Positions 10,080 through 62,467 of a DNA stretch of 64,000 nt are shown in pieces. The notes under the pieces are model-generated. The model was not told the origin of the DNA. It saw nothing but the letters and a program-made list of their open reading frames with translations, and did not search any database. This stretch comes from an uncultured Anaerolineales bacterium (GTDB taxonomy: Bacteria; Chloroflexota; Anaerolineae; Anaerolineales; E44-bin32), in assembly GCA_965195195.1 (NCBI GenBank), contig CBDAFF010000083.1, positions 4,225-68,224 on the forward strand, read 5' to 3'. Made by a program: the position numbers and the translations under genes. How positions within the stretch are numbered: the first letter of the stretch is position 1; every line of letters starts with the position of its first letter.

Positions 10080-10226
10080 TTATATGGCGTTAACGATGCC
10101 ACTAAACACGTTTCCGATGGCAGGGCCGAGCAACGCAAGAATGACAATCACAACAACAGCCACTAGAACAAGAATTAAGGCGTACTCGACGAGGCCCTGT
10201 CCTTTCTCTTTTGGGGCAAATAACAT
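10080..10226 (-). CDS. flp: Flp-family type IVb pilin (48 aa), absent from the ORF track
   Basis: The reverse strand reads MLFAPKEKGQGLVEYALILVLVAVVVIVILALLGPAIGNVFSGIVNAI. This gives the G/QGLVEY prepilin processing motif followed by a hydrophobic helix. AGGAGG lies 7 nt upstream of the ATG. Confidence 0.85.
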   Translation of the reverse strand: MLFAPKEKGQGLVEYALILVLVAVVVIVILALLGPAIGNVFSGIVNAI

Positions 10227-40991: not shown

Positions 40992-43900
40992 TTATCTCGG
41001 CCGTGGAGAGCGCTTCACTTTCCCCCACCAGGAGAGGATAAATGGGGTCACGAGCATCGCTACAGGGATCAGGAAGGCGATGGCTGCTTCGATGGTTCCA
41101 TCGGATTGCGTTGATGCCATTGCCCAAGATGAGAAGGGAGCCCCCAAGGCAGTAGGTCCATTAATCTCTGCAGGGCCGGTGGCAGTTGTGCCGTTCGTCG
41201 ATGTGATCGTCGCCGTGAAAGTACAAGCTACTCCCGAAGGACCCGCTTGAACGTCTGCAGTGGTGAGAAGACCATCTCCCGCATCCATCGAACCTGATGT
41301 AATGATGGGATTTGGTGTCAAGAGTGTGCAATCACCGGTTACTGCTCCGCTTATCACTATTCCATAAGCGGTTCCCGGTCCACTATTGCCAAAGAGCAAG
41401 TCAAAAGTGAAAACTTCATTTGGATTCAAAGTTACAGCAGAAGGCGAAACGCTGATAAACATTTGTGGATCAGGAACTGGATTGACTACGATCGTCACAC
41501 TCGCCGAGGAACATACAGGACTTGGATCACAGATTTCATAGGTGAACGTGTCCGTTCCGTTGTAATTGTTGTTTGGCATGTAGGTAAAGGAACCATCACT
41601 TCCGAACGCTAATGTTCCATTGCTGACATTCGAAACCAACGTGGGTGAAAACGGATCCCCATCCACATCGTAGTCGTTCGTCAGCACACCTGGAGCGGTA
41701 ATAACTAATGGGGTTAGGGTGTCTTCATCGACGTTATAAGGTCCATCATCTATTGCCACCGGCGGGTCGTTCACCGCATTCACCGTGATCGTCACAGTAG
41801 CCGCTGGGCTCGTATCCGAAGTCTCATCAGGCGCCAACGCACCACTATCCGTGATCTCATATTGGAAGGTCGTCGTTCCGTTGTAATCCGGCGCTGGCAC
41901 AAAGCTAAAGGAGCCATCATCATTCAGGTTGACTGTCCCCTCTGATGGCGGTGGCGTTGCCACCACCGATAGCGTAAGCAGTATGTCACCTAGGCCCGTG
42001 TCGTTGCTCAGCATACCCGGCGCTGATACGTTCAGCGTCACGTCCTCATCCGTGCTGTATCCAGGATCGGCGTTCGCCACCGGTACGTCGTTCACTGGCG
42101 TTACTGCCAAGTCTACTATTGCCGTATCGCACAGCGTTGGCGAAGGTACTCCAGGATCACATATTTCATACTCAAAGCTGTCCGGTCCTCGGTAGTCCGC
42201 GTTCGGCGTGTAATCGAACGATCCATCTGCATACAGCGTCAGCGTCCCATTGCTCACATCGGTCACCGGCGTGGTATTCACCACCAATGTGTCCCACAAT
42301 GGCACGGTCACATCATCCGCAGGATCGCTGTCATTTGTTCTCACCCCCGGTGCAACTTCGTTTAGAATCTCATCTTCACTGACACTATAGCTGTCACCCA
42401 CCGCGTCAGGCGGGTCGTTCACCGAATTCACTGTGATCGTCACCGTGGCCGCTGCACTCGTCTCCGATGTCTCATCAGGCGCTAACGCACCACTGTCCGT
42501 GATCGTGTATACAAAGCTGTCCGACCCGTTGTAGTTCGCCGCTGGCGTGTAGCTGAACGATCCATCATTGTTCAGTGTGAACCCGCCCGGCGCAGCATTT
42601 GTCGGCCCGCTCACCAAATTCAGTGTCAGCAGAATATCCCCTAGCCCCGTGTCATTACTCAGCACTCCGGGCGCTGATGCGTTAAGCGTCGTGTCCTCAT
42701 TTGTGCTGTATCCAGGATCGGCGTTCGCCACCGGTACATCGTTCACCGGGTCCACCGTGATCGTCACCGTTACCGCTGCACTTGTCTCCGATGTCTCCCC
42801 AGGCAGCGTTCCACTGTCCGTGATCGTGTATACAAAGCTGTCCGTACCACGATAGTCCGCCTCCGGCGTGTAGCTGAACGATCCATCATTGTTCAGTGTG
42901 AACCCGCTCGGCGCCGCATTTGTCGGCCCGCTCACCAAATTCAGTGTCAGCAGAATATCGCCCAGGCCCGTGTCATTGCTCAGCACGCCCGGCGCCGATG
43001 CGTTCAGCGTTACGTCCTCATCCGTGCTGTATCCAGGATCGGCGTTCGCCACCGGTACATCGTTCACCGGGTCCACCGTGATCGATACCGTCGCCGTGTT
43101 CGACGTCGCTCCCTGATTATCATCCACCGTATACGTGAAGCTGTCTAAGCCCCGGTAATCCGCATTCGGCGTGTAATCCACTGTGCCGTCGCTTTTTGCT
43201 GTCGCCGTGCCATTAGTCGGACCAGTTATCACCACTACCGACGTAACATCAATCGTCCCATCCACATCCGTGTCACCATCAACCACGTTGATGTTAAAGT
43301 CGATGCTGTCCTCATCCAGTGTGGCACTGTCATTATCCGCCACCGGCGGGTCGTTCACCGAGTTCACCGTTATCGTCACCGTCGCTGATCCACTCGTCTC
43401 CGATGTCTCCCCAGGCAGCGTTCCACTGTCCGTGATCGTGTAATCAAAGCTGTCCGTCCCGAACCAGTTCGCCGCCGGCGTATAGCTAAAAGATCCATCA
43501 TTGTTCAGTGTGAACCCGCTCGGCGCCGCATTTGTCGGCCCGCTCACCAAATTCAGTGTCAGCGGAATATCGCCCAGGCCCGTGTCATTGCTCAGCACGC
43601 CCGGCGCCGATGCGTTAAGCGTCGTGTCCTCATTTGTGCTGTATCCAGGATCGGCGTTCGCCACCGGTACATCGTTCACCGGGTCCACCGTGATCGATAC
43701 CGTCGCCGTGTTCGACGTCGCTCCCAGATTATCATCCACCGTATACGTGAAGCTGTCTAAGCCCCGGTAATCCGCATTCGGCGTGTAATCCACTGTGCCG
43801 TCGCTTTGTGCCGTCGCCGTACCATTACTCGGCCCAGTGGTCACCACTACCGTCGTATCATCAATCGTCCCATCTACATCCGTGTCACCCGCGGTCACGT

Positions 43901-45569
43901 CGATGTTGAAGTCGATGCTGTCCTCATCCAGGGTCGCACTGTCATTATCCGCTTCTGGCGGGTCGTTCACGGAATTCACCGTGATCGTCACCGTCGCTGT
44001 GTCACAAAGTGATGGCGGTGGCACTCCAGGATCACACACCTCATAAACAAAAGTTTCAATTCCGTTAAAGTTCAGGACTGAATCATAGTAAATGGCGCCC
44101 GTGTCATATAAAGTCAGGAAGCCACCCGCATCTGGTGTGCTTATTGGAGTTGTATTAACTGTCAGCGTATCCCAATAATCCGGTGGGACTAAGTCATCCC
44201 CATCACTGTCGTTAACACGCAAACCAGGACTCGCAAACTGAAGTGGGGGACCGTCCTCATCAATCGTGTATGAGTCATCGATTGCGATAGGTGCATCCGG
44301 AATGGATATGACAGTAATCTCCACATCCGCAATATCACACAAACTCCCTGCATCACACGCCCGATAGCTGAAAGTAACCAGTCCGTTGGTATTTAGTTCG
44401 GGTGTGAAGGTGAAAGTGCCATCCAGGTTCAGATTCAATGTTCCACTCGATGGGCCGCTTACTACTTGCGCAGTGAGCACATCCGGAGTCCCATTCCAAA
44501 GTAAATCTACATCATTCCCCAAGACGCCCCCAACCGGAGCGTCCGAATTCGGATCGGAAATAACAAGAGTTGTGTCCTCATTAATACTGTAATCGTCATC
44601 ATAAGCAGTTGGCGCCCCAGTAGGTGTGCTGGTCGGGGTCGGAGTAAAGACATAGACAGGCCTGTAAAAGACCGCAGTCTCGATATTGTCCCCCCAAGTA
44701 TGAACCTCGTTTATGAGAACCTGTCCAGCGACTGTATTCTGCGCATTCGCCTGAAAGGTGAAACTCGGCAATGTGAAGCCACCTTGCGAAATAATTAACG
44801 CCGGACTGAATTGCCAGTAAACCGCAGGGCCTGTAAGGACTCCATCGGGATCAGGACATGGTCCGAAAGTCCCACCTTGATTAGCTGAACCAGGAACATA
44901 TGTCATATCGGCTGGCAGAAAATCACAAATGAGGGTTACTTCGGCAGGTGGAATACTTCCCCAATTTATCACCATTACTTCAAAATCGACCGTGACCGGT
45001 GCGGGTCCAGGTGGGATCTTATAGGGATTGGCAATTTTGACCGGATACACACGCGGCGTCGGCGTCGGCGTATTAGTGGGCGTGGGTGTAATTGTGGGTG
45101 TGTCCGTAGTTGTCGGCGTGAAAGTTGGAATCCACGTGTTTGTTGCTGTGGGCGTATTCGTCGGTGTTGGCGTGCTCGTCGGCGTGGAAGTTACCGTGGG
45201 GGTGCTCGTCGGCAGAGCCGTTGGAGAAGGCGGGTTTGGCGTACAGTTCCCGAGCAGGAAACAGGAATCTGATGGATCCGAAGCGAGAAATATCCCGCCG
45301 CCGTTGTCACCCGCGGCCTCGGCGATGATGAGCGGATTGATGCCGCCAAAGGCGACCGGCGTCCAGATCCCGTAATCTACCGTCAGCCCTGAATGAATCT
45401 CCACATCTTCAAGACCACCGGAGTCGAACCACATGGCGGTCTGCCCGCATCCGAAGAGCACAAAGAAGATTAATAACGCCCACAGCAGCCAGAAGAGAGG
45501 CTGCCGGCGGTCGCCTTCACTCTCTTTATCAGCTCCCATGAGCGTTCTACGATCGATATCGTCGATCAT
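40992..45569 (-). CDS. Giant surface protein/adhesin candidate (1525 aa) with tandem Ig/cadherin-like repeats
   Basis: N-terminal TM segment, a Pro/Thr linker and a DUF11-like segment. At least 10 tandem domains of about 100 aa follow, each opening VNDVPVANADPGYST or VNDPPVADNDSATLDED. The protein ends in a C-terminal TM helix and a basic tail (KVKRSPRPR). Confidence 0.9.
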   Translation of the reverse strand: MIDDIDRRTLMGADKESEGDRRQPLFWLLWALLIFFVLFGCGQTAMWFDSGGLEDVEIHSGLTVDYGIWTPVAFGGINPLIIAEAAGDNGGGIFLASDPSDSCFLLGNCTPNPPSPTALPTSTPTVTSTPTSTPTPTNTPTATNTWIPTFTPTTTDTPTITPTPTNTPTPTPRVYPVKIANPYKIPPGPAPVTVDFEVMVINWGSIPPAEVTLICDFLPADMTYVPGSANQGGTFGPCPDPDGVLTGPAVYWQFSPALIISQGGFTLPSFTFQANAQNTVAGQVLINEVHTWGDNIETAVFYRPVYVFTPTPTSTPTGAPTAYDDDYSINEDTTLVISDPNSDAPVGGVLGNDVDLLWNGTPDVLTAQVVSGPSSGTLNLNLDGTFTFTPELNTNGLVTFSYRACDAGSLCDIADVEITVISIPDAPIAIDDSYTIDEDGPPLQFASPGLRVNDSDGDDLVPPDYWDTLTVNTTPISTPDAGGFLTLYDTGAIYYDSVLNFNGIETFVYEVCDPGVPPPSLCDTATVTITVNSVNDPPEADNDSATLDEDSIDFNIDVTAGDTDVDGTIDDTTVVVTTGPSNGTATAQSDGTVDYTPNADYRGLDSFTYTVDDNLGATSNTATVSITVDPVNDVPVANADPGYSTNEDTTLNASAPGVLSNDTGLGDIPLTLNLVSGPTNAAPSGFTLNNDGSFSYTPAANWFGTDSFDYTITDSGTLPGETSETSGSATVTITVNSVNDPPVADNDSATLDEDSIDFNINVVDGDTDVDGTIDVTSVVVITGPTNGTATAKSDGTVDYTPNADYRGLDSFTYTVDDNQGATSNTATVSITVDPVNDVPVANADPGYSTDEDVTLNASAPGVLSNDTGLGDILLTLNLVSGPTNAAPSGFTLNNDGSFSYTPEADYRGTDSFVYTITDSGTLPGETSETSAAVTVTITVDPVNDVPVANADPGYSTNEDTTLNASAPGVLSNDTGLGDILLTLNLVSGPTNAAPGGFTLNNDGSFSYTPAANYNGSDSFVYTITDSGALAPDETSETSAAATVTITVNSVNDPPDAVGDSYSVSEDEILNEVAPGVRTNDSDPADDVTVPLWDTLVVNTTPVTDVSNGTLTLYADGSFDYTPNADYRGPDSFEYEICDPGVPSPTLCDTAIVDLAVTPVNDVPVANADPGYSTDEDVTLNVSAPGMLSNDTGLGDILLTLSVVATPPPSEGTVNLNDDGSFSFVPAPDYNGTTTFQYEITDSGALAPDETSDTSPAATVTITVNAVNDPPVAIDDGPYNVDEDTLTPLVITAPGVLTNDYDVDGDPFSPTLVSNVSNGTLAFGSDGSFTYMPNNNYNGTDTFTYEICDPSPVCSSASVTIVVNPVPDPQMFISVSPSAVTLNPNEVFTFDLLFGNSGPGTAYGIVISGAVTGDCTLLTPNPIITSGSMDAGDGLLTTADVQAGPSGVACTFTATITSTNGTTATGPAEINGPTALGAPFSSWAMASTQSDGTIEAAIAFLIPVAMLVTPFILSWWGKVKRSPRPR
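42540..43990. repeat. Near-identical tandem DNA repeats inside the adhesin gene
   Basis: 42889..43500 and roughly 43501..43990 align base for base with few mismatches, defining a 612-nt unit that encodes two domains. 42568..42888 is a further 321-nt partial unit. Confidence 0.8.
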
Positions 45570-50313: not shown

Positions 50314-51261
50314 TCACTCCACAGGACCTTGGGCCTCAGCCGCGAGAACATGGAGCCTCTCGCCCTCAGAGCGCTTGGCGAGATACATCGCCTCATCGGC
50401 TGCATGGACGAAGTCTTTCGATGTGTCAAATCCTGAGTGCCACTGCACGACTCCCATGCTTACAGAGAGCTTCCCTGACTCAAACTCTACGTTCAATATA
50501 GCCTCACGAATGCGTTTCGCGACTGCAGCCGCTTCCTCACGGTCCGCCTCCGGGAGAAGAACAATGAACTCATCACCTCCAAATCGCGTACCCAGGTCAA
50601 CTTTTCGAATCGAATGCTGGATGGATCGCGCTACAAGCTTCAGCGCTTCATCCCCGGCTGCATGGCCGTAGCTGTCATTGATGGCCTTGAGCTTATCCAT
50701 ATCGATCATGATGATGGACAGCGGCCGGCTGTATCGTTTCGCTCGTTCTAATTCCGTATCTAAGTTATCCTGCAACTTGTGGCGATTGTATAAACCAGTG
50801 AGCGAATCAGTCACCGCCAGACGCTGGATTTCCTCGAAGAGGCGCTTGTTTTCCTTCACCAGATACCTGCGTTCAAGCGCACGAGATAAGGCGAGTTCAA
50901 AACTGGTCATCGACTCCAGAGGTTTGGTGAGGTAGTCGTATACGCCTGCCCGCAGCGCCTCTACGGCGGTCTCGACGGAGGCGCTTCCCGTGAGAATGAG
51001 CGCTTGAACATCCGGATCAATCTTACGCGCAGCATCGATCACTTCCAAGCCGGTATGCTCAGGCATGTATAAATCGAGTACAAGCGCGTCGAATTCACGC
51101 TCGTTCACCGCATCCATCGCCTGTTGACCATTCGCTGCCTGGTAGACCTCGAGACCCATGCGGGAGGCGCGGCGAGAGAGGAGCCGCCGATAATCTGGAT
51201 CATCCTCAGCGATTAATATCGTTCCAACCTGCATGCTGCCTTTCTTTTTATCTTCAGTCAA
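50314..51261 (-). CDS. Response regulator with a GGDEF diguanylate cyclase output (PleD/WspR-like)
   Basis: Receiver (ILIAEDDPD...LVLDLYMPEHTG...TKPL). The GGDEF active site is intact (RFGGDEF), with an RxxD I-site (RKVD) five residues upstream. Confidence 0.9.
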   Translation of the reverse strand: MTEDKKKGSMQVGTILIAEDDPDYRRLLSRRASRMGLEVYQAANGQQAMDAVNEREFDALVLDLYMPEHTGLEVIDAARKIDPDVQALILTGSASVETAVEALRAGVYDYLTKPLESMTSFELALSRALERRYLVKENKRLFEEIQRLAVTDSLTGLYNRHKLQDNLDTELERAKRYSRPLSIIMIDMDKLKAINDSYGHAAGDEALKLVARSIQHSIRKVDLGTRFGGDEFIVLLPEADREEAAAVAKRIREAILNVEFESGKLSVSMGVVQWHSGFDTSKDFVHAADEAMYLAKRSEGERLHVLAAEAQGPVE

Positions 51262-51617: not shown

Positions 51618-51645
51618 AAGAACCCCACATCACTGCGGGGTTCTT
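51618..51645 (-). terminator. Candidate terminator downstream of the 764-aa TadE-like gene
   Basis: GAACCCC...GGGGTTC stem followed by TTGTTTCGT on the minus strand, about 30 nt after the stop codon. Confidence 0.55.
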
Positions 51646-51676: not shown

Positions 51677-53971
51677 CTAACCGAAATCTGGTGGTGTACT
51701 CGTCACTGTCGGGGTGGGCGTCACCGTCGGCGTGCTTGTAAATGGCGGCGGCGTAAATGTTTTTGTGGGCGTTGGCGTAGCCGTCCAGATAGGTGTCCGC
51801 GTTGGCGTTGGCGGTGGCTCCGCCCAGTAGCTACCTACCACCTGACAGGTACCCCACCCCGGGAAATTAAACGTTAAGGTGCCGCGGTAGAAACCGTTGA
51901 AGGGCTGTCCATTCAAGTCGAAGTACGTATCCCACCAGCGATCCGCACCCGTCGAGAGAGGGATCGAAGGCGCTGCCGCAGAGACAGGAGAGCTGAACGA
52001 AGATCCGCCGTAGGAGGTGCCCTGGAACTTGAAATAGTCGAAGTTCATCGGCGGCGCATAAGTTGTGTTCCATTGCAGAGTTGAGCTCGTCAGGTACGCT
52101 GTCTGTGGGTTGTGGTTGATCAGGCGAATGCCGAAGGTATTATTCTTCAACCGGGTGCCGATGTTTTGCAGTAGATTGCAGTTCGGCGTCGGAGTAGGCG
52201 TAATCGTTGGCGTGTTCGTTACTGTCGGGGTGTTGGACGGTGTGGGCGTGATCGTCGGTGTGAGCGTAATCGTCGATGTGGGTGTAATCGTCGGCGTGAG
52301 CGTCGCCGTTCCCGTCGCCGTAGGAGAGGGCGTCGGTGTAATTGTTGGGAAGGTGATCGGCGCGGCCCCGCTAGATAGATTGCACGCGGGGTCGCTGAAC
52401 TGGATCGTGAAGCCAAAGTGGCTTGAATTGAGATTCAGCGGCGAAGAGGAAAAGTAGCCCTCAAAGCCGCCGTTGAAATTCATATAGATGTAGGTCGAGT
52501 TCGGCCCCAATGCCACTGGTTTCGGCAAGCCTGTATTTGCCGATGTTGAAGAGCTGTAGTCGTTCCCATTATGGACTTTTGATGTATACCAATACATCCA
52601 GTCGAGGTATTCATTCCAACCATATTGATTTGAAGCCTGCTCGACTGGATTCCAATTGGCCGTCACACCTACGACCTCCAGCCCTGGATAGCTGGTGTTG
52701 TTGATCCATTGGGCGACGCGAGCGTCACTGAAGAAGCGAAACTGGCCAAAGCTCACACCCTCGCAAGAAGGTGTCGGCGTCAAAGTTGGTGTCGGTGTCA
52801 ACGTTGGTGTCGGTGTCGGTGGGACGCCGATTTCAAACACCACATCAGCCCAATTACTCCAAATCCCTTCATCGTCGAGCGCTCTCGCCAAGAGTTTATG
52901 CTGACCCGACTCTATCGGTTGCCCGTTGGGCCATTTAGCACTTACCACAGGGTGACCATTGCAAGGAGCATTACCGCCAAATGCGCAGTAATCCGTTGTG
53001 TAATCCACCTCGGTATAGCGCCAAGCCCAGCCAGCACCATCCCACCAGAAGAACTGGAAATCCACTTGCATGATCCCGTCCCCATCAGGTCCAACACCCG
53101 CGCATGTCGCCGTGTCGGAGTTATCCGGGTCATACGCCTGTGCATAAGCGGGAATCTTTGAGCCCGGACCGCTGAATATATCACCTGGCGATGGTCGTAG
53201 TATGGTAATCAACGGCGGTACCTTGCAGGGTGTCTCCGTCGGCGTCGGTGTGTGCGTTGGGGGAGGGGTCATCGTAGGAGTTGCCGTTGACGTAGGGGTC
53301 GCGGTGTTTGTTGGCGTGAACGTCGGTACCGAAATCGTCGCCGGCAAGCCAACAACACGGGCAACTCGGTACTGTTCAACGATGCCTTCGCGCTTAGCAG
53401 TAAGCCGGATTTTCGGCATCCATGAGCTTATGATTGGGCTTATGATCGGATGATCGAAATCCAGCGTAACCGAAACCCGATTGCCCGAACCGCCCGCATC
53501 TTCAGTCAGCTGACAATCTGCCGATATACTGGCAGATGAATCCGAGGGGAAATAGACAATATCCTTTTTATTCGAACAGACTGTAATCTTTAAATAACCC
53601 GGCGCACCGGGAGGTGCAGAGAGGTCCCGCAGAATACCCGCTGATCCAGATAAGGCATTGTCTTTAATCGAAGGGATGCGAGCGCCATCCTCCTCCGTTT
53701 TTGAATCGCAGATCCCCCCGGGGTACCCGGCACAATAAGTCTGTTCATATTCACCTGTGACGGCGTAGCGAACACCAAAGCGAGCGCCATTCTCGATCGA
53801 GACCCAGGCGTGCAGCAATCGGGCGATCTCGATGATCGCGAAGAGAAGCAGGAGCATGACAGGCAAAATGAGTGTAAACTCGACAAGTGCCTGTCCTTTG
53901 AATTTCGAGTGTCCTTTTTCTTTCATAATTTTTTCGCCCCGCACATCCAAGTTAATCAAACAACCCGACAT
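51677..53971 (-). CDS. Giant TadE-like pseudopilin fusion, paralog A (764 aa)
   Basis: N-terminus KFKGQALVEFTLILPVMLLLLFAIIEIARLLHAW is a TadE-type prepilin-like leader and helix. Three Cys-bounded beta-rich modules follow, separated by Pro/Thr linkers. The protein ends ...TSTPPDFG. A more likely start is the ATG at 53926 (MKEKGHSKFKGQ...). Confidence 0.8.
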   Translation of the reverse strand: MSGCLINLDVRGEKIMKEKGHSKFKGQALVEFTLILPVMLLLLFAIIEIARLLHAWVSIENGARFGVRYAVTGEYEQTYCAGYPGGICDSKTEEDGARIPSIKDNALSGSAGILRDLSAPPGAPGYLKITVCSNKKDIVYFPSDSSASISADCQLTEDAGGSGNRVSVTLDFDHPIISPIISSWMPKIRLTAKREGIVEQYRVARVVGLPATISVPTFTPTNTATPTSTATPTMTPPPTHTPTPTETPCKVPPLITILRPSPGDIFSGPGSKIPAYAQAYDPDNSDTATCAGVGPDGDGIMQVDFQFFWWDGAGWAWRYTEVDYTTDYCAFGGNAPCNGHPVVSAKWPNGQPIESGQHKLLARALDDEGIWSNWADVVFEIGVPPTPTPTLTPTPTLTPTPSCEGVSFGQFRFFSDARVAQWINNTSYPGLEVVGVTANWNPVEQASNQYGWNEYLDWMYWYTSKVHNGNDYSSSTSANTGLPKPVALGPNSTYIYMNFNGGFEGYFSSSPLNLNSSHFGFTIQFSDPACNLSSGAAPITFPTITPTPSPTATGTATLTPTITPTSTITLTPTITPTPSNTPTVTNTPTITPTPTPNCNLLQNIGTRLKNNTFGIRLINHNPQTAYLTSSTLQWNTTYAPPMNFDYFKFQGTSYGGSSFSSPVSAAAPSIPLSTGADRWWDTYFDLNGQPFNGFYRGTLTFNFPGWGTCQVVGSYWAEPPPTPTRTPIWTATPTPTKTFTPPPFTSTPTVTPTPTVTSTPPDFG

Positions 53972-54136
53972 TAATCGTCGTTCGTCACCTGTTCCAAGTT
54001 TACACGCGGGAGTCTTAATTCGTCCTTACAACCAACTTACGGCTTCGGTAGCGGGAGATTGGGGAGTCTGTCTAAAGAAAGAAATCCCGGTGGCGATACG
54101 GAAAGCATTGTTCAGTCATGGGGAAATATGAGGAGT

Positions 54137-54265
54137 TGTCATTCTGAGAGACCGCAGGGAGCGAAGATTCTCGTTCCAGGCCAGGAGACCCATCAATTCT
54201 AAGAACGAGATGCTTCACTTCGTTCAGCATGACAAGTTCCTGCATGCTGTCATTTCGAGAAGAGA
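54137..54265. repeat. Intergenic modular repeat, copy B (shorter and inverted)
   Basis: GTCATTCTGAGAGACCGCAGGGAGCGAAGATTCTCGTTCCAGGCCAGGAGACCCATCA is the reverse complement of 62639..62697. It is followed by CATGCTGTCATTTCGAGAAGAGAATC. Confidence 0.65.
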
Positions 54266-54281
54266 ATCAAGCGCTAAGGGC

Positions 54282-54959
54282 TTACGTCTCCAGGCGGTAG
54301 CCGTAGCCCCGGACGGTGACCAGCCGCGTCGGATTCTCCGGGTCTGGTTCGATCTTCCGGCGTAGAAGCCAGATATAGCGTCGCAGCGCGCTGCCGCTCT
54401 TAACTCGCATCTCCCCCCAAACATCTGCTATCAGATCATCCTGCGAAACAGCTTCTCCAGAACGACGAGCGAGCGCGGCGAGAAGTCGAAATTCTGTTGG
54501 AGTGAGGTCGAGCACTCGATCCTCTATGCACGCCTCGCGTTTTAGCATATCCACTGCAATCACACCAGCGAAGAGGACATCATCCTCGCTGTCCGACTGT
54601 GTTCGAGCGAGCACAGCTTGAATGCGGGCAACGAGCTCGGCCATGCTGAATGGCTTAGTGATGTAGTCGTCAACGCCAAGACGGAAGCCGCGCAGCTTGT
54701 CTGCTTCCGCGGTCTTGGCCGTGAGTAGAATTACAGGCACATCGGCCAATTCCTTGAGGCGGGCGCAAACCTCCCAGCCGTCCATCCCGGGCATCATGAC
54801 ATCCAGAAGCACAATCGCCGGACGCTCCTTGTAGAATTGGCGCAGCGCCTTCTGCCCACGGTCTGCGATCGAAACCTGGAAACCCTCTTTCTCTAAGTAT
54901 TCAGAGACAAAGCGTAGCAGAGTTTTATCATCATCGACGACAAGCACTTTATTCGTCAT
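54282..54959 (-). CDS. OmpR/PhoB-family response regulator
   Basis: Receiver (VLVVDDDK...LLDVMMPGMDG...TKPF) plus a winged-helix domain (LTPTEFRLLAALA...VRGYGYRL). Confidence 0.9.
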   Translation of the reverse strand: MTNKVLVVDDDKTLLRFVSEYLEKEGFQVSIADRGQKALRQFYKERPAIVLLDVMMPGMDGWEVCARLKELADVPVILLTAKTAEADKLRGFRLGVDDYITKPFSMAELVARIQAVLARTQSDSEDDVLFAGVIAVDMLKREACIEDRVLDLTPTEFRLLAALARRSGEAVSQDDLIADVWGEMRVKSGSALRRYIWLLRRKIEPDPENPTRLVTVRGYGYRLET

Positions 54960-55103
54960 GGCAAACCTCGGTAAATAATCCTTTCACCAACTATGGATTC
55001 CCGATTATCGGATTGCTTCCATAGATTGAAAAACTTAAGGCTCTCTCAGTGATCCTCAATCGATGAACCTAACCAGGAAACAAGGAAACCTTCCCCCACT
55101 CAC

Positions 55104-57275
55104 TTACTTTATCGGCAGCCAAAATTCAAGGCACGTTCCCGCCATCGCTTTTTCATCCACTCGAATTCCGCCTCCCATAGCTTCCAGTAATCGTGACACC
55201 ATGGGTAAACCCAATCCGTGGCCATAGACCTCACGTGCATCGCTTGCATCTAATCGATGGAACAGCTCGAAGACATGCTCGCGCTGGTCCGCGGGGATTC
55301 CCGGACCCGAATCGACAACTGTAATAACAACCCTCTCCGATTCCTCATGAGCTTCGATGATGATGTCACCAGATGGTGCATACTTCACCGCGTTGTCCAG
55401 CAAATGGAAGAAGACGCTATCGAGTGCGCGCACATCCGCGATCGCCAGGACCAGGTCCTCCCCGATTTTCGTTTTTACTCGAGATTTGACGGTGCGGGCG
55501 GGAAAGCGTGCAATCGTCCTCTCAAGGACCTCGGCAATCGAGAGCGGCGAGAGCGTTAGCTGAAATCTCCCGGCTTCTAATGCCGATAAATCCAGGATAG
55601 TCTCAACAAATAGAGAAAGGCGCTCTGTCTCGTCTTGAACGAGCTGCAGAGATTGACTCGACTTCTTCCCAAGTTTTGAACGGTTCTTGAGGACGAGCTC
55701 TATCCCACCGCGTATGTTCGTCAGCGGCGCCCTCAGTTCATGTGATACGAGGGCTACGAATTCCGATTTGAGGTTGTCGAGCGTTTTTAACTCCTCATTT
55801 AACCTCTCGAGATCTGCGACTGTGTCCTCTAATTCTCGGGTTCTCCCCTCGACCTTCTCCTCCAGTTCAGCGTTCAATCTGGCAAGGTCGTTGCGGGCCT
55901 GAGCAATTTGCTCCATAGCATTTCGCAGGTCGGTCTCACGCTCGCGGATCATCGTCAGATCGTAAGCGGTACCCGCCAGCAAGGCACTCTGGCCGCGGGC
56001 AGCCTCTATCGGGTTGAGTGAAAGTTGCACCGGAAGCCTCGAGCCACCCTCTCCAACGATCACAACCTCCCCGCTCCAACCCCCATCGAGAGCACTATCG
56101 AGGAGCGTATCAAACGACGCCGGCTCGTCGCCTTCGATTTGGAAGAATAAATTCACATTCTGAGCTTTTTCGTCGCCTATCGCCCTTCGCAGTGCTGGAT
56201 TAGAGAGCTGTATTTCACCCGCCGGAGTGCAAATGAAAGCCAGGTCAGAGGTCGCATTGATGAGCGCCGCGAACTGCACCATCTCCTGCTGACCGGTAAT
56301 TACGCCCTGGCGGGCGAACAGAAGCAGGATCAGGATCCCTGCCGCGACGATACTTACCCAATCCAGAGCATCTGTATACCACCAATCAAAAAGGATGTAG
56401 CCAACAACGGCATAAGTGAAGGCTATAGGCAAAAGCAGTTCTATCCGCAGCCGCCACTCCCTCCGCCCGGATTCCTCTTGACGGTGGTCTGCATACCGGC
56501 CTTGTAAGATCTGATAAGCAATGCCAATAAGCACCATTCCCACCATCCAACCCGCCTCGACAAAGCTCGGCATCCCAACCCGCGCCTCGCCGCGCAGCAG
56601 ACCATTTCCTAAATCGCTTACAAAAAATACTATAAAAGCTATCGCCAAGAGCGGAAAGACCCAGCGCTCCTGGGGATGCCTACGAAGTAGATTTAATCTC
56701 AAAACAAGAACGAGCAGTATAAGGTCTAAAGTGGGAAGAACACTCAACCAAAAAGCATCCCCTAGAGAGAGCGTTCGTGCGCGGAATGTGGAGCCCAAGA
56801 AGATGAGCCAGGAGATCGTTAAGACGGAGAGGATCAAGATGGCGAGATCAAGCGTTTCCCGCAAACGCCCGAAGCGCCCCGGCTGCTCGGTAGGATAGGT
56901 GATAAATGCTGTAAGTGCAGCAAGATAACCCGCCAGTATTAATAACTCGCGAAAAGTCGGCGGGGATAGGGGTTGACCGCGTAAAAGCCATAGTAGGACG
57001 GCAAGCACATCCGCGGCAGCCCAAATCAGCAGTGCGACGGCGAGCAGCCGCCAGGAGCGCTGCTCGGATTTCAAACGGATGCCAGGAAGCGTCTTAACCA
57101 CAGCCCAGGCGACAATCAGCCTGACGCCTAAAACCAGAAACGCAGGAAACAAGCTGCCTTCCATCGTCTCTGGCGCTCGCGCTATCCAGAGGACGTAAGA
57201 TGCTGTAACCAGGGCCACAAAAACCGGCCAATGCCGACTGTATAGCTCGGAGAGATGTGAATTCTCGTTCATCAA
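55104..57275 (-). CDS. Sensor histidine kinase with a multi-TM N-terminal sensor, a PAS domain and a coiled coil
   Basis: About 8 TM helices, a PAS-like region, H-box VSHELRAPLTNI and HATPase DSGPGI...GHGLGL. Confidence 0.9.
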   Translation of the reverse strand: MMNENSHLSELYSRHWPVFVALVTASYVLWIARAPETMEGSLFPAFLVLGVRLIVAWAVVKTLPGIRLKSEQRSWRLLAVALLIWAAADVLAVLLWLLRGQPLSPPTFRELLILAGYLAALTAFITYPTEQPGRFGRLRETLDLAILILSVLTISWLIFLGSTFRARTLSLGDAFWLSVLPTLDLILLVLVLRLNLLRRHPQERWVFPLLAIAFIVFFVSDLGNGLLRGEARVGMPSFVEAGWMVGMVLIGIAYQILQGRYADHRQEESGRREWRLRIELLLPIAFTYAVVGYILFDWWYTDALDWVSIVAAGILILLLFARQGVITGQQEMVQFAALINATSDLAFICTPAGEIQLSNPALRRAIGDEKAQNVNLFFQIEGDEPASFDTLLDSALDGGWSGEVVIVGEGGSRLPVQLSLNPIEAARGQSALLAGTAYDLTMIRERETDLRNAMEQIAQARNDLARLNAELEEKVEGRTRELEDTVADLERLNEELKTLDNLKSEFVALVSHELRAPLTNIRGGIELVLKNRSKLGKKSSQSLQLVQDETERLSLFVETILDLSALEAGRFQLTLSPLSIAEVLERTIARFPARTVKSRVKTKIGEDLVLAIADVRALDSVFFHLLDNAVKYAPSGDIIIEAHEESERVVITVVDSGPGIPADQREHVFELFHRLDASDAREVYGHGLGLPMVSRLLEAMGGGIRVDEKAMAGTCLEFWLPIK

Positions 57276-57364
57276 GGCGATTGTATGTCAGCTAAATCAG
57301 GGGGGCAAGAACAGAAATAGTATCGGCCCCGCTTGTTAGCAGGGCCGATATTCATTATTGGTCG

Positions 57365-59281
57365 CTAGCCGAAATCTGGTGTTCCCGTACGCGTCGGAGT
57401 CCTTGTGGGAGTCGGACTTGGAGACGTAGGAGACGATGTAGGCGTTCTCGTGATCGTTGGTGTGCGCGTTACCGTTGGCGTTGGTGTTCTTGTCGGGGTA
57501 CGCGTGATCGTTGGTGTACGCGTTACCGTTGGCGTTGGTGTTCTTGTCGGGGTTCTTGTCGGAGTGCGTGTGATCGTCGGAGTCCGAGTTATAGTAGGAG
57601 TCCGAGTGATGGTCGGTGTTAAAGTCACAGTCGGAGTACGCGTTATCGTAGGTGAAACCGTCGGTGTTACCGACTGCGTTGGAGTCGGCGTATTGGTCAC
57701 GGTCGACGTGCTCGTCGGTGTTGGTATTGTGATCGATGAGGATACCGGACATACATAATCGAATGTCAGGGTCGTCGCGAAATTGCCATACAGTACACCG
57801 GCCGGTGTGTTATCGAAATCCGCCCGCCAGTAAATCGAGGCGCTGGATGGATGCGGGAAGGAGCTCGGAACGGCCGGTCCTTGAATTGTCGGCGAGCTGA
57901 AATCATCGCCTGGATAATACTGCATCCAGTTGAATTGTAGTTGGTTAACGAAGTGGGCGGCGCTCATCTCCGTCCAATTCGTATTGGAGCCGGTAAGGTA
58001 AATCGTCATTGGATTATCGTTTCTTACCCACATGTAGAGCTGATCGCCAGCAGTGTAGTAGTTTCTCACGACGATATTATTGCAGTCGATCGTTGGAGTA
58101 ACGGTTGGAGTTAAGGTAGGCGTGGGGGTCAGCGTTGGCGGGACATTTAACGAAAACTGCACTTCGTCAATGGGGCTCAGCTCGCCTTCGTCATCTGTCG
58201 CTATCACCTGCATGCGGTGCAGACCCGAATTCATTGTAGCTCCACCGGGCCATGATGCCGTGTTCGTCGGATGCTCACTGCAGGGCGCATTCCCAAGAAA
58301 ACCACAGTAGGCTTGTGCGACATCTGTGGACGTGTAGACCCTCACCCAAGCAAACCCATTCCAGTAATCGATGGCGAAATCTACCTGCACGATCCCCTCG
58401 CCATCGACGCCAACGCCCGCGCAGGCTACAGGATCGGCGTTATCTGGATCGTATGCTACTGCTTGGGCGGGTAATTTATCGATATATGTCCCCCCATTGG
58501 CTGGAAAGATGATTTGAACGACAGGGGGCACCTTGCACGGCGTAGTCGAAGGAGTAGGCGTCTGTGTAGTAGTTGCCGTCGGTGTGTTTGTCGCTGTGGC
58601 AGTCGATGTGAATGTCGGCACAGAGATAGTCGCCGGTAAGCCGACAACGCGGGCGACACGGAATTGCTCAACGATGCCTTCTCGTTTAGACGTAAGGTGG
58701 ATGTGGGGTAATGCCGAGCTGATGAGTGGCACGATTAGCGGGTGCTCGAAATCGACGGTCACGGAAACGCGATCGCCTGGTCCGCCTGCGTCTTCTATTG
58801 GATTTGTTGTGGCAACCTCCTCACACCACGCCGGCTGATGCAAAGGTGTGACCGAATCGTGATAAGAAAAAAGAGGTCCAGCCCCGGTTCGCTTGCTGGA
58901 GCAAAGCGTGATCTTAAAGTAACCCGGCGAAGCGACTGGGACAGTTTCGTTGCGCATGATGGCGACGGCTCCCGCTCGTGCCGCTTCTTGGATGGAGGGA
59001 ATGCGGGCAAATTCCTGCTCTGGAAGATCGTCGCAAATTCCTCCTGGGAACACTGAGCAAAAGGTATCATCAAATTCCCCGGTTACTGCATAGCGAACAC
59101 CGAAGCGCGCCCCATTTTCAACCGCGAGCCAAGCGTGCAGCAGACGCGCCATTTCTATGATTACGAACAGGACCAGCAGCATAACCGGCAGCACAAGCGC
59201 AAACTCGACAAGAGTCTGCCCGCGGAAACGCCGCTTATGTTGAGGGTCGCTGGGAGATTGGCTGGCTGGTAATACGTACAT
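57365..59281 (-). CDS. Giant TadE-like pseudopilin fusion, paralog B (638 aa)
   Basis: N-terminus RFRGQTLVEFALVLPVMLLVLFVIIEMARLLHAW. It is collinear with paralog A through the TadE module, the first Pro/Thr linker and the PCKVPP...YDPDN...CAGVG..G.GI.QVDF domain. It ends in a long TPT/TRT tail and ...GTPDFG. Confidence 0.8.
   Translation of the reverse strand: MYVLPASQSPSDPQHKRRFRGQTLVEFALVLPVMLLVLFVIIEMARLLHAWLAVENGARFGVRYAVTGEFDDTFCSVFPGGICDDLPEQEFARIPSIQEAARAGAVAIMRNETVPVASPGYFKITLCSSKRTGAGPLFSYHDSVTPLHQPAWCEEVATTNPIEDAGGPGDRVSVTVDFEHPLIVPLISSALPHIHLTSKREGIVEQFRVARVVGLPATISVPTFTSTATATNTPTATTTQTPTPSTTPCKVPPVVQIIFPANGGTYIDKLPAQAVAYDPDNADPVACAGVGVDGEGIVQVDFAIDYWNGFAWVRVYTSTDVAQAYCGFLGNAPCSEHPTNTASWPGGATMNSGLHRMQVIATDDEGELSPIDEVQFSLNVPPTLTPTPTLTPTVTPTIDCNNIVVRNYYTAGDQLYMWVRNDNPMTIYLTGSNTNWTEMSAAHFVNQLQFNWMQYYPGDDFSSPTIQGPAVPSSFPHPSSASIYWRADFDNTPAGVLYGNFATTLTFDYVCPVSSSITIPTPTSTSTVTNTPTPTQSVTPTVSPTITRTPTVTLTPTITRTPTITRTPTITRTPTRTPTRTPTPTVTRTPTITRTPTRTPTPTVTRTPTITRTPTSSPTSPSPTPTRTPTRTGTPDFG
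57450..57557. repeat. Tandem 54-nt duplication inside the Pro/Thr/Arg tail of paralog B
   Basis: 57450..57503 and 57504..57557 are near-identical, each encoding TPTRTPTPTVTRTPTITR on the minus strand. They sit within a wider low-complexity tract at about 57380..57720. Confidence 0.7.
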
Positions 59282-59296: not shown

Positions 59297-60916
59297 TTAG
59301 TGGACGATGCGTGTAAAGATACGTGATGCAATCGCTTCGAATACCTGAATGAGCCCTGTGCCGGTCGGCGAGAAATAGTAATTTCCGCAGGATTGACCAG
59401 TTGGTATGCTCGAGCACGGATCTGTGTGTGGATCGCCGTCGTCTCCGACAGCAGCGATATAGCGCAGCAATTGCTCACCCTGATCCGCTTCGCATCCGCC
59501 AGGGTAAGCACTGAGATCGCAATGTGTGTCGTTAATCAACTCATCACCAAGGCCGATCGTGAAGATGACCGCTCCCTGCCCTGGTCCGAGGCAAGAAGTG
59601 GTCGTCGGGTCGTACGCGTTTGCATCCGGGCAGCCGACGAAATAAGCCCGCTCAACTGCCCAGTCCTCTGCATCTTTTCCATAAGCACCCAGTGTACTCG
59701 CCTGGCCAGGCGGATCGCTGACCTCGAAGTCCTCGTCATGGCAAAAAGGCTCGACCCAGGTTGGCTTACCCGCACCAAGGGCGTTGGGGCAGATGATATT
59801 GGCGACCGGAAGAGTATCATCCGTTGCCGCATTCGCAGAGCCATCGCTTAGCAGGATGAAGATCGGAACTGCTTCTTGACGAAGGTAGGGAGGAGCGTAA
59901 AGTGCCCCTCCAACTTTTAAGCCGTCAGCGATGTTGGTATTCGTGCAACCGGTTGGATCACCAAATGCCCACCCAGCACAACTAGGCAGCTTGTACACCA
60001 ATAGGCTACCGATTGATGACTTGATTGAGGAAGCGTTGTCGCTTGGTATGAGCTGGACAACAGCATTTTTATCGAAACTAACAACCGCCATGCGATCGTA
60101 AGGGAAATACATTCGATCGACGAGTGCGAGCGCGGCCGCACGTACATGCTCGAAGGGATAGCATTCACCCTGGACACCGGCTGCAGGGTTAGGGTCATTG
60201 CAGTTATCGGGATCTCGTCCCCAATCATCAGCGAAACCGCCAACTTGGGGGACGGTCCCACCAACATTGCAATCGTCAGCCCCATCGGGAAACCCTAATC
60301 CCCCGACAAGGTTAGTTTCAGCCCAAGCATCATCATCATCGTTATCGCCGCACTCTGCATCGTAGGCCATCGACTGTGAGGTGTCGATCGCGAGCACGAT
60401 ATCCACTGAGGCGGTCTCGGAGATGGCTTCTGCACGAATATCGATCGAGCCCCAGCCAATAATGGGTAGGAAAGCGAATTCAACCGGCATCGTCGCTTCA
60501 ACGCGCACGAACTTACGCGGCGGTTCATCGTTATGAATTCCATCTCCATCTATATCCGGAGGGCAGAGATTAATATCGTGGTAGACGTTGGTGTTTCCCG
60601 CCGTCGGGTCGGTGATATCACAAATGAAAATCACGGCATTGGCTGGGTTGAGGCTGTTTAAACTGATGAATTCATCGGCGGCAGCCTCGATCTCAGCCAC
60701 CGTGCGCCCCTCACGGAATTGGTTAGCCGCGGCGAGGGATGCTGAGTCAACCGCGCGGCGCAGGTGGCCGATCTGGATGAAAAGGATCCCAACATCAACG
60801 GTCAGACCGATGAAAGCTGCCAGACCGATGAAGGCCAAGGCGATGAGTACCATCGCCTGCCCGCGCTGGAGTTTAGATGAAGCGTTACGGGGTTGGTGTT
60901 GGTTCGACATAGGCAT
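59297..60916 (-). CDS. TadG-like pseudopilin with a von Willebrand factor A domain
   Basis: N-terminus LQRGQAMVLIALAFIGLAAFIGLTVDVG...RRAVDSASLAAA is TadG/Tad_N-like. MIDAS-type DIVLAIDTSQSM. Confidence 0.8.
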   Translation of the reverse strand: MPMSNQHQPRNASSKLQRGQAMVLIALAFIGLAAFIGLTVDVGILFIQIGHLRRAVDSASLAAANQFREGRTVAEIEAAADEFISLNSLNPANAVIFICDITDPTAGNTNVYHDINLCPPDIDGDGIHNDEPPRKFVRVEATMPVEFAFLPIIGWGSIDIRAEAISETASVDIVLAIDTSQSMAYDAECGDNDDDDAWAETNLVGGLGFPDGADDCNVGGTVPQVGGFADDWGRDPDNCNDPNPAAGVQGECYPFEHVRAAALALVDRMYFPYDRMAVVSFDKNAVVQLIPSDNASSIKSSIGSLLVYKLPSCAGWAFGDPTGCTNTNIADGLKVGGALYAPPYLRQEAVPIFILLSDGSANAATDDTLPVANIICPNALGAGKPTWVEPFCHDEDFEVSDPPGQASTLGAYGKDAEDWAVERAYFVGCPDANAYDPTTTSCLGPGQGAVIFTIGLGDELINDTHCDLSAYPGGCEADQGEQLLRYIAAVGDDGDPHTDPCSSIPTGQSCGNYYFSPTGTGLIQVFEAIASRIFTRIVH

Positions 60917-61607
60917 TTGGCATTATGCTATAAGCATGAAGTGTGATCGTGTCCGGCACGAACATCGTGATCCAGGGAAGCCCCAGGACCATGTGGTAAT
61001 CGTAAAAGATTTCGACCATGACCATTCCGGTGGCCGGCGCAGCGCCATTTAGCATACTGTTGATTTTCGCTGTATCAATTTTCGAAACATGGTTGCCTTT
61101 GTAACTCCAACCATCCGCGTCCGGGAAGCGTTGAGTCACTGAGCCGCCTGCAGCCGCGATGGCTGAGATGACAAGATCATCGGTCGCCGGATTTAGAACG
61201 ACTTGCTCAGAGAGAACCTGATCGGCCATACATGGCAGCAGCCGGTAGAAGTATGTTGTATTGAAGCAATCCATAACCCCATCATCCCCCTCAAGCGGGT
61301 CCAGATTCGCGCCAAACCTTGCGATCTCCCTGGCTCCATCGATCAGATCCAGATAGTAGTTAAGCATGAAACCAAATTCGATCAAGCCTGAGAGCATCAT
61401 GACCAAGAGCGGCAGTAGAACCATGAACTCGACGATGCTTTGCCCACGCGATTTCTTGCGTGTTGTATTTGAGCGCAACCTAGGAAGGCCTCGTGTTTTT
61501 TCCATTTCCACTAATCCCATGCCATCAGCAATGGCATCCATGTGACATTCATCATTATACGCGCCGGGCTTAACTCGAGGGCTAGTACCGCGGGGCCAAG
61601 AGAGCAT
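60885..61607 (-). CDS. TadE-like pseudopilin (conventional size)
   Basis: SRGQSIVEFMVLLPLLVMMLSGLIEFGFML. The real start is probably an internal ATG, for example 61505 (MEKTRGLPRL...). Confidence 0.75.
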   Translation of the reverse strand: MLSWPRGTSPRVKPGAYNDECHMDAIADGMGLVEMEKTRGLPRLRSNTTRKKSRGQSIVEFMVLLPLLVMMLSGLIEFGFMLNYYLDLIDGAREIARFGANLDPLEGDDGVMDCFNTTYFYRLLPCMADQVLSEQVVLNPATDDLVISAIAAAGGSVTQRFPDADGWSYKGNHVSKIDTAKINSMLNGAAPATGMVMVEIFYDYHMVLGLPWITMFVPDTITLHAYSIMPNAYVEPTPTP

Positions 61608-61675: not shown

Positions 61676-62467
61676 CTACATATTGAGGATATTTTCCAAC
61701 CATGCCCACCCCCAGAAATAAACCCACCAGGCGCCCAAGATGAGGAAGGGACCATAAGGAATCGGTGTAAACGCGTTGTAACGGCGGTGCATCTTCATGA
61801 ATATTAAATAGGCGATACTGAACAAACCGGCTGCCAGGATACCGCGCAGCAACGCTTCGATCACCCCTGGAAAACCAACCGCCAACCCAATGATCGTGGC
61901 CAGAGTCACATCACCAAAACCAAGAGCGACTTCATCGTCGTCCTGGTCTTGCCCCCCAGAAACATTGCGAGCGAATATACCTCCGAGCAGATAGAGCAGG
62001 AGGAACAGACCGAAGCCGACCGCCCCACCCAGAAGTATCCTGCCCAGACTCATCTGCGGATTCAATAGGCCGAGCAATATAAATAAGACAGCAGCCGGAA
62101 AAGTAACAACATGGAGGATGAGTTTATGCTCCATATCGATGACGATGATGAGCAGGAAAACCGCGCTTACAAGAAAAGCCGGCCAGAAATTCGTTGGGGA
62201 ATTGCTCCAGAAGAAAATTCCAATGGATCCGGCGATGGCCAGCATTTCAACAAGCAAAGTTCGCGTCTGCCGTCTGGTGCCGCAATACTCACAGCGCCAA
62301 ACTCGGGTAATGACCGCAGGAATAGCGAACCAGGAGATCGGTGAGAGAGGGGCTGTGCATGCAGGGCAGCGTGGCACCGCCGGTTTGCGAAAAAACGGGA
62401 GGCTGTCTGCAAGCCAGTTGATGGCGACCCCGAAGGACCAACCGAGGATAGCAACGGCAATAATCAT
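61676..62467 (-). CDS. A24-family prepilin peptidase
   Basis: Polytopic membrane protein with an N-terminal CPAC...CEYCG Cys pair motif. Conserved Asp-containing segments are VIDMEH and LGFGDV. Confidence 0.85.
   Translation of the reverse strand: MIIAVAILGWSFGVAINWLADSLPFFRKPAVPRCPACTAPLSPISWFAIPAVITRVWRCEYCGTRRQTRTLLVEMLAIAGSIGIFFWSNSPTNFWPAFLVSAVFLLIIVIDMEHKLILHVVTFPAAVLFILLGLLNPQMSLGRILLGGAVGFGLFLLLYLLGGIFARNVSGGQDQDDDEVALGFGDVTLATIIGLAVGFPGVIEALLRGILAAGLFSIAYLIFMKMHRRYNAFTPIPYGPFLILGAWWVYFWGWAWLENILNM

Follow-up and report, generated by a model that had tools for sequence, protein, structure and literature searches.

Long TadE-family proteins of Anaerolineales carry beta-sandwich modules on Pro/Thr linkers and are candidate modular minor pilins

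Results

Two long TadE paralogues have a modular architecture

We analysed a 64,000-nucleotide (nt) stretch of DNA, hereafter the window, from an uncultured Anaerolineales bacterium (contig CBDAFF010000083.1). Two paralogous genes on the minus strand, A (51677..53971) and B (57365..59281), encode long proteins of the TadE family. Both proteins start with a TadE pilin-like module (D1) and continue through a Big_7-like immunoglobulin (Ig) domain (D2) into copies of a new beta-sandwich module (DX). Pro/Thr linkers join the modules; the architecture is D1-D2-DX-DX for A and D1-D2-DX for B. We consider, with a probability of about 0.55, that A and B are modular minor pilins of a type IVc (Tad/Flp) pilus, displaying tethered binding modules. 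A and B are real modular genes. Neither chance nor read-through of open reading frames (ORFs) explains them, because 431 homologous proteins were found at E ≤ 1e-3, most of 430-1000 amino acids (aa) with the same layout. Scoring in this search was confined to the 8000 candidates with the most shared words.

A preliminary description of this DNA had placed two ORFs, of 764 and 638 aa, at exactly these coordinates, and both are there. The figure of 764 aa for A is the length as listed. The probable true start of A is M16 at position 53926, giving 749 aa; its homologues start at the residue corresponding to M16 (MKEKGHSKFKG...), as in P0001, MRETRHSKSKGQTLVEF. Positions 53927-53971 are then probably upstream of the real start, and the leader is 11 residues long. 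The listed start of B is consistent with the starts of its homologues. A and B share 47% identity over ~570 aa (BLASTP, E 4e-115). We segmented both proteins by combining a scan for Pro/Thr-rich stretches with phmmer. The sequence motifs quoted at the outset (KGQALVEF, RGQTLVEF, ARVVGLPATISVPTFT, PCKVPP, AYDPDN and CAGVG) were all found. The C-terminal parts had been described as discrete beta-rich modules on Pro/Thr linkers, and both the segmentation and an AlphaFold2 (AF2) model of DX bear this out. No NCBIfam family scored above cutoff for A, B or two neighbouring genes, which encode a short TadE and a prepilin peptidase.

D1 is a TadE-type module

In A, the leader, the class III signal KG|QALVEF and the pilin-like module occupy residues 1-215 (53327..53971, minus strand). 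The corresponding part of B, with the signal RG|QTLVEF, spans residues 1-228 (58598..59281, minus strand). With the residues that follow, the signals read KG|QALVEFTLILPVMLLLLFAII in A and RG|QTLVEFALVLPVMLLVLFVII in B. The Pfam TadE profile (PF07811; gathering score 22.9) matched residues 26-68 of A with 51.1 bits and residues 21-63 of B with 50.0 bits. Both matches cover profile positions 1-43 of 43. In an alignment of 110 D1 sequences Q+1, E+5 and F+6 were invariant, as were three Cys and many further positions, and G-1 was at least 90% conserved. With a profile score far above cutoff and conservation of this kind, the TadE-type class III signal and helix proposed for both N-termini are genuine. 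At the sequence level, profile score, class III signal and the company of tad genes agree in placing A and B in the TadE family.

The AF2 model of D1, built on the family alignment, had a predicted local distance difference test (pLDDT) score of 85. It comprises a 48-residue N-terminal helix (residues 10-57), two short helices and a sheet of 4-5 strands. The modelled topology is pilin-like, and topology is the sole basis on which a pilin fold is proposed. D1 by itself (~200 aa, or ~190 aa in its mature form) is as large as an entire canonical TadE.

D2 is a Big_7-like domain and DX a new beta-sandwich

D2 follows the first linker in both proteins (A, residues 248-383, 52823..53230; B, residues 249-378, 58148..58537; minus strand). 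Pfam family PF17957 (Big_7) was matched by 13 of 30 D2 homologues, with a best E of 1.2e-6; D2 of A itself had no Pfam match at E ≤ 1. Against the Protein Data Bank (PDB), the D2 profile found 9kvu, a "bacterial immunoglobulin domain B1" (E 7e-5), and weakly matched the X2/Fn3-like modules 3pdd and 3pe9. Like Big_7 and these modules of glycoside hydrolases, D2 has the motifs P-x-G...A-x-A-x-D-(P)D and G-x-H-x-L-x-A-x-A-x-D-D-x-G. Unlike them, it contains an extra insertion of 40-50 residues with two additional Cys pairs. Four Cys, present in D2 of A, are invariant across the family alignment.

The remaining modules belong to a single domain family, DX, of 115-135 aa. A has two copies, A-D3 of a long subtype (residues 403-537, 52361..52765) and A-D4 (residues 598-716, 51824..52180). 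B has one, B-D3 (residues 399-517, 57731..58087); all are on the minus strand. Within DX, the C-terminal Cys, one Asn and one Trp do not vary, and conservation of the N-terminal Cys is at least 90%. Hence, the two Cys-bounded modules first noticed in A and the one in B do have near-invariant or invariant terminal Cys, and all are members of one family. Recurrent motifs are VRN-x-N, GND-x-SPT and W-x-ADF. The last module of B had been said to resemble the last of A, and rightly so; B-D3 and A-D4 are 27% identical, compared with 17% for A-D3 and A-D4. DX modules overall share 15-50% identity. D1, at 42-90% identity between homologues and A, is far more conserved, as would be expected if it is the constrained assembly interface.

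With an alignment of 46 diverse modules, AF2 modelled DX (A-D4) as a nine-strand beta-sandwich (pLDDT 96.2; predicted template modelling score 0.89). DX corresponds to no Pfam family, and neither its profile nor full-length A matched anything meaningful among PDB sequences. The model had no Foldseek match at E ≤ 1e-3 in PDB or BFVD. Its best PDB matches (TMq ~0.5) were the archaeal type IV pilin 8fk7 (TMq 0.51), FlaF, fimbrial lectin domains and glycosidase sandwiches.

Several relationships of DX were considered. The likeness to 8fk7 and FlaF is at the level of a generic Ig sandwich, too weak to support descent from a pilin head. DX as a copy of the D1 sheet, or as a relative of D2, was rejected, with hhalign probabilities of at most 1%. 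A CBM2-like carbohydrate-binding module had been suspected from the terminal Cys pair, the N and W motifs and the Pro/Thr linkers. This too was rejected, as only 1 of the 46 DX modules touched PF00553 (E 0.0066), and none of the PDB Foldseek matches listed for DX is described as a carbohydrate-binding module.

Pro/Thr linkers vary in length and end in a conserved tetrapeptide

The Pro/Thr linkers range from 19 to 118 aa. In A they comprise linker 1 (residues 216-247, 53231..53326), linker 2 (residues 384-402, 52766..52822; partly 18-nt tandem repeats) and linker 3 (residues 538-597, 60 aa, 52181..52360; 18-nt tandem repeats). A terminal tail (residues 717-764, of which ~44 aa are Pro/Thr; 51680..51823) ends in PDFG. 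The terminal tail of B (residues 518-638, ~118 aa; 57368..57730) ends in DFG, and its coding sequence contains tandem repeats of 18, 54 and 66 nt. All lie on the minus strand. The 18-nt repeats are imperfect and occur at 52238-52303, 52770-52817 and 57449-57649. In the tail of B, a 54-nt unit occurs in 1.9 copies that are 98% identical, a sign that the repeat has expanded recently and that linkers vary in length. Given these repeats, linker length is evolutionarily plastic. Spurious Gly/Val-rich ORFs arise from such repeats on the plus strand, for example at 57405-57758, 52065-52457 and 45028-45375.

In 95 of 122 family members, the last Pro/Thr linker is followed at once by a tetrapeptide with which the protein ends. 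Two types were seen: C-x-[DE]-C in 42 of the 122, and x-Phi-[D/F]-[G/D] in 53, including A and B. Cys occurs at position -4 in 42 cases, always within C-x-[DE]-C. The tetrapeptide is not followed by a hydrophobic or transmembrane (TM) segment. The sites lie at 51680-51691 (A) and 57368-57376 (B) in the window. They lie at 11339-11350 and 17114-17125 in L001, a homologous locus in the complete 3.4-Mb Anaerolineaceae genome CP070708.1. The long TadE paralogues of a second such locus, L002, end in GPGD or GPSD. In the window, L001 and L002, no ORFs other than the long TadE genes encode a Pro/Thr tail with the terminal motif. Elsewhere the same tails occur on DX proteins without TadE (P0155, P0180, P0213, P0224 and P0244). 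The motif matches no NCBIfam model and may be a lineage-specific tag for sorting, capping, processing recognition or cross-linking.

The family is lineage-restricted and its modules are shared with other proteins

Hundreds of homologues, of 430-1200 aa, are known, and nearly all stem from Anaerolineales or Chloroflexota. The best 120 of the 431 homologues are mostly of 430-1002 aa, carry PF07811 and come from metagenome-assembled genomes (MAGs) of Anaerolineales and Chloroflexota. Databases name them "TadE/TadG family type IV pilus assembly protein", "pilus assembly protein" or "hypothetical". Among these 120, the architectures are D1-D2-DX-DX (48), D1-DX (31), D1-D2-DX (18) and D1-DX-DX (13). 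The largest number of DX modules follows D1 in P0074, which has five. D2 is optional across the family.

The D1 patterns were also scanned against species-representative genomes, and 78 loci were kept. In Anaerolineales, Anaerolineaceae and Thermoflexales, the ORFs that match D1 over most of its length are, where complete, mostly of ~500-1200 aa. The best match to D1 of A was in L004, from an Anaerolineales MAG (90% identity over D1), which gives the taxonomic placement of the window. An exact look-up found no record of protein A in the assembly index. Matches from Bacillus, Neobacillus, Clostridium, Actinomycetota, Terriglobia and others covered the N-terminal helix alone, in proteins of 128-189 aa. 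The expectation that ordinary TadE proteins are short thus holds for these relatives from other phyla.

An exhaustive hmmsearch of 1.84 billion representatives with the DX profile found 467 clusters (50% identity) at E ≤ 1e-3 and 202 at 1e-10. Beyond the first homologue set, D1 was present in 56 of 131 DX representatives, and many of the remainder are gene fragments. Around 30 are complete DX proteins that are not pilins. P0145, P0155, P0186, P0187, P0211 and P0235 have a Sec-type signal or TM anchor, P0126 has a kinase-like N-terminus and P0180 a PA14-like one. D2 is likewise found in non-pilin proteins. The occurrence of DX and D2 on Sec-signal or membrane-anchored proteins is the signature of cargo grafted onto a carrier. 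To judge from these proteins, DX is a lineage-restricted extracellular module, most often but not solely carried by TadE. A further protein, P0246 (2177 aa), joins four DX modules to a Flp-type N-terminus (…QRGQGLLEYALILAMVSLAIIAILALVGP). Hence, the major-pilin class too seems to be used as a DX carrier.

A and B lie in a conserved Tad minor-pilin locus

Pfam matches to their neighbours place A and B in a Tad minor-pilin operon. All genes of this row are on the minus strand. A prepilin peptidase of the A24 family (61676..62467; Pfam Peptidase_A24 and A24_N_bact) is followed by a short TadE (60885..61607, listed as 240 aa; Pfam TadE, E 1.9e-10). Next is a TadG-like minor pilin with a von Willebrand factor A (VWA) domain (59297..60916, 539 aa; Pfam Tad, Tad_C, VWA_2 and VWA). 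The short TadE ORF overlaps the TadG ORF by 32 nt, and its real start is probably further in. Its similarity to A is confined to the N-terminal helix; the globular part of D1 cannot be aligned. As expected for a Tad tip complex (TadE/F/G or KilL/M/N; PMC12075869), TadE-like, TadF-like and TadG-like minor pilins are encoded together here: the short TadE, TadG-VWA and B stand in one row with A nearby.

Two ORFs separate B from A. These encode a histidine kinase (HK; 55104..57275), with PAS-HisKA-HATPase equivalents in L001, L002 and a third homologous locus (L003), and a response regulator (RR; 54282..54959), which is of OmpR type in homologous loci. Immediately downstream of A is a REC-GGDEF response regulator (50314..51261), identified by the GGDEF motif in its translation and conserved in position in related genomes. 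More kinases and regulators follow. A cadherin/Big_9 repeat adhesin of 1525 aa (40992..45569; Pfam) marks the end of the conserved locus. Terminator-like hairpins directly follow the stop codons of A (51618..51645, 12-bp stem) and B (57321..57350, 13-bp stem with 8 GC pairs), both on the minus strand. They are suggestive by position and stem length alone.

The conserved Anaerolineales locus measures ~20-25 kb (40992-62467 in the window; L001, L002 and L003). It opens with the A24 peptidase, short TadE, TadG-VWA, long TadE (1-3 copies), PAS-HK, OmpR-type RR and long TadE. It continues with REC-GGDEF, dCache-HK, REC-HK, in some cases a further REC, and a giant cadherin/Big_9 adhesin of 1525 to >6000 aa. 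Each locus has 1-4 long TadE paralogues. In L001, DUF5656, A24, TadE (209 aa), VWA (536 aa) and a long TadE (449 aa) precede the HK, the RR, a 708-aa D1-DX-DX-DX protein ending GCGMDC, REC-GGDEF and HK. L002 has four long TadE paralogues and, at the position of the giant adhesin, a 6178-aa protein downstream. L003 has a cadherin-repeat giant protein in this place. This gene order suggests that control of pilus, c-di-GMP and adhesin is coupled.

The major pilin and assembly genes are also in the window, ~40 kb from the A/B row. A motif scan identified a 48-aa Flp-type pilin with the signal KG|QGLVEY (MLFAPKEKG|QGLVEYALILVLVAVVVIVILALLGPAIGNVFSGIVNAI; 10080..10226, minus strand) just upstream of cpaB. 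The assembly genes cpaB/rcpC, REC-tadZ, cpaF/tadA, tadB and tadC (Pfam) occupy 3966..9851 on the minus strand. The TadZ/CpaE-like ATPase (7404-8669, minus strand) begins with a complete receiver domain (Response_reg, E 1.6e-28). This is one more indication of a link between pilus assembly and phosphorelay signalling.

Other genes of the window include a divergent DUF5656 membrane protein (62852-63670, plus strand; 5583-6398 in L001) that adjoins the prepilin peptidase. It may be an unrecognised accessory gene of the Tad locus. A GT-C-type glycosyltransferase cluster (13720-21541, minus strand) contains three PMT_2 genes and one GT87, together with unassigned ORFs of membrane-protein size. A Wzy_C/TPR protein is encoded at 27612-29984. 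The cluster and the Wzy_C/TPR protein are candidates for enzymes that O-glycosylate the Pro/Thr linkers.

Discussion

From the domain anatomy, TadE membership, conservation and gene context observed here, we infer how A and B may act. First, the neighbouring A24 peptidase would cut each class III signal behind its Gly-1 (KG|QALVEF for A, RG|QTLVEF for B). Second, the hydrophobic N-terminal helix, with its Glu+5, and D1 would dock with the short TadE and TadG-VWA to form a tip complex that primes the pilus. Alternatively, D1 could be inserted sporadically into the Flp fibre. Third, the C-terminal string would not enter the helical core but form a flexible tether, tens of nanometres long, bearing a Big_7 Ig domain with two DX modules in A and with one in B. 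Fourth, the binding modules presented on the tether would serve in attachment or aggregation. The scanned ORFs of the window (Pfam) include no secretin and, because of this, the size of displayed cargo is not obviously limited. A and B end separate apparent transcription units with a two-component system between them. They may therefore be alternative, separately regulated tips.

This interpretation is favoured by the TadE matches well above the gathering score, the conserved class III signal, the pilin-like topology of the D1 model, the operon-like row, the other tad genes of the window, the same order in the complete or long genomes L001, L002 and L003, and the hairpins after both genes. The division into carrier and cargo is favoured by the higher conservation of D1, by the shuffling of modules between species and their presence in non-pilin secreted proteins, and by the published modular pilins (PMC8179133) and modular Tad tips (PMC12075869). 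The conserved Cys of D1, D2 and DX fit an extracytoplasmic location. Incorporation of A and B into the pilus, a role as tip adhesins and glycosylation of the linkers are all plausible.

Several observations weigh against this interpretation. No solved pilin or other structure resembles the D1 model (Foldseek against PDB; best E 0.46, noise only). DX is modelled as a generic Ig-like sandwich, TM scores reach at most 0.51 with no informative neighbour, and its binding role is an analogy. In a scan of the region for promoters and terminators, site totals were not above shuffled expectation. In published Tad tip models, the large modular subunit is of TadG/KilN type and not of TadE type; in Myxococcus Kil pili, it has a compact domain that packs on the helix bundle (PMC12075869).

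The main alternative is an explanation in which display is independent of a pilus. The TadE N-terminus would then serve as class III signal and membrane anchor and never enter a fibre. The Pro/Thr stalks would span the multilayered envelope of a probably monoderm cell, with the beta-sandwich modules at the surface. Archaeal sugar-binding proteins with class III signals are a precedent for such an anchor. In its favour, DX, D2 and the C-terminal tetrapeptide are also found outside the pilins, on proteins with a Sec signal or TM anchor. The stalks, at 19-118 aa per linker, do look like wall-spanning spacers, and the reported multilayered, probably monoderm nature of Chloroflexota envelopes is consistent with this (bioRxiv 10.1101/2025.08.19.671072). 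However, an invariant Glu+5 and very strong conservation of D1 would be needless for a mere anchor, and the genomes compared show strict synteny of the long TadE genes with those for the short TadE and TadG-VWA. Furthermore, several paralogues with one conserved D1 look like interchangeable subunits of one assembly. We regard pilus-independent display as possible but doubtful, and favour modular minor pilins.

Alternatively, A and B could be priming or structural pseudopilins whose extensions do not act as adhesins. The extensions would be spacers, elements that penetrate or shield the envelope (such as a glycosylated brush) or a mechanosensing tether to the HK/RR pair and GGDEF protein. In every locus examined, a PAS-HK/OmpR-RR pair does lie between the paralogues, with REC-GGDEF and kinases downstream. 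DX has no recognisable homology to a binding site, and the whole window contains five glycosyltransferase genes of GT-C type (PMT_2/GT87). Conversely, the number and type of modules are freely shuffled between species, which is typical of ligand-facing cargo and not of a fixed mechanical part. The giant cadherin adhesin also marks the locus as adhesion-related. We think such a structural or sensing role improbable. That the genes arose by annotation or assembly error, by read-through of Pro/Thr repeats or fusion of a short tadE to a downstream gene, might be supposed from the tandem repeats and spurious opposite-strand ORFs. This is effectively refuted: the same continuous architecture recurs in assemblies that are independent of one another and number in the hundreds, one of them a complete genome of 3.4 Mb, the modules are predicted to fold with very high confidence, and a conserved motif stands at the extreme C-terminus.

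The interpretation of A and B as modular minor pilins can be extended to a bolder joint claim. Here, the Anaerolineales Tad pilus would carry long, flexible and possibly O-glycosylated tassels, as interchangeable DX strings on pilins of TadE type or, in P0246, Flp type. The C-terminal tag (CxDC, PxFG or PxFD) would be the mark of a new system for sorting, cross-linking or capping, which also serves other secreted proteins of this lineage. The two-component and c-di-GMP genes embedded in the locus would switch between alternative tips. Such display would be possible only where no secretin limits the cargo. Taken as a whole, this claim is speculative and we judge it unlikely.

Tad pili of Anaerolineae are highly expressed and linked to aggregation (PMC4877987). 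These bacteria are core filamentous formers of flocs and granules in digesters and wastewater plants, and the A/B family provides concrete candidates for the adhesive parts in their aggregation. DX adds a new extracellular domain family, and the C-terminal tetrapeptide may point to an unrecognised step of processing or anchoring. If the proteins are merely membrane-anchored, the annotation is still useful, but ordinary.

Comparison with known systems

The preliminary description held that the architecture was undescribed for Tad pili. This is correct in part. Tad pili themselves have been reported in the Chloroflexota and Anaerolineae literature, and both modular pilins (PMC8179133) and modular Tad tips (PMC12075869) are already published. 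The concept behind A and B is therefore not new; what seems to be new is the TadE multi-module form and DX. In the open-access papers and bioRxiv preprints searched, we found no description of a TadE-based, multi-module, Pro/Thr-linked family in Anaerolineales, or of DX.

The canonical TadE/TadF pseudopilins of the Tad (type IVc) pilus are TadE and TadF of Aggregatibacter and CpaJ and CpaK of Caulobacter. A and B share with these the N-terminal TadE motif, Gly-1, Glu+5 and a position beside an A24 prepilin peptidase and TadG. They differ in adding 400-550 residues, consisting of 2-3 autonomous beta-sandwich domains, Pro/Thr linkers and the C-terminal tetrapeptide.

The large type IVb minor pilins of CofB/TcpB type combine a pilin module, a linker and beta-rich domains, are located at the tip and initiate assembly (PMC8179133). 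A and B are alike in these three parts. However, CofB and TcpB are of another pilin class and have no Pro/Thr linkers, and neither PDB sequence searches nor Foldseek matched them to A, D1 or DX.

In Myxococcus Kil pili, TadE/F/G-like minor pilins form modular tips, and paralogous tips give different specificities; TadE/F/G tips are predicted for other bacteria as well, and the modular C-terminal domains are proposed to customise the end of the Tad pilus (PMC12075869, 2025). Common to both systems are paralogous sets of minor pilins, modular C-terminal domains, many predicted disulfides and a trio of two TadE-like proteins and one TadG-like. In contrast with the Kil tips, A and B are TadE-type proteins with flexible, Pro/Thr-linked strings, and TadG-VWA is present in addition.

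A further parallel is with the modular pilins described in 2021, in a survey that used IPR012902 pilins only (PMC8179133). Of these, PilB-vWA and PilC-lectin of Streptococcus sanguinis are modular type IV pilins that act as adhesins in a monoderm (PMC8179133, PMC9934059). As in A and B, a pilin carrier bears grafted modules that are also found in non-pilins, and exposure at the tip and a role in adhesion were proposed. The S. sanguinis proteins belong to IPR012902 (T4a/Com-type) and usually carry one module on a short loop. In contrast, the A/B family has a TadE-type (PF07811) carrier, up to 5 modules, long Pro/Thr linkers and, in DX, a module without a database family. Hence, the modular-pilin principle would extend to the TadE class and to multi-domain cargo separated by linkers. 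Consistent with this, A and B, through D2 and DX, fit the published definition of a modular pilin, namely a pilin module with at least one domain that is not pilus-specific (PMC8179133).

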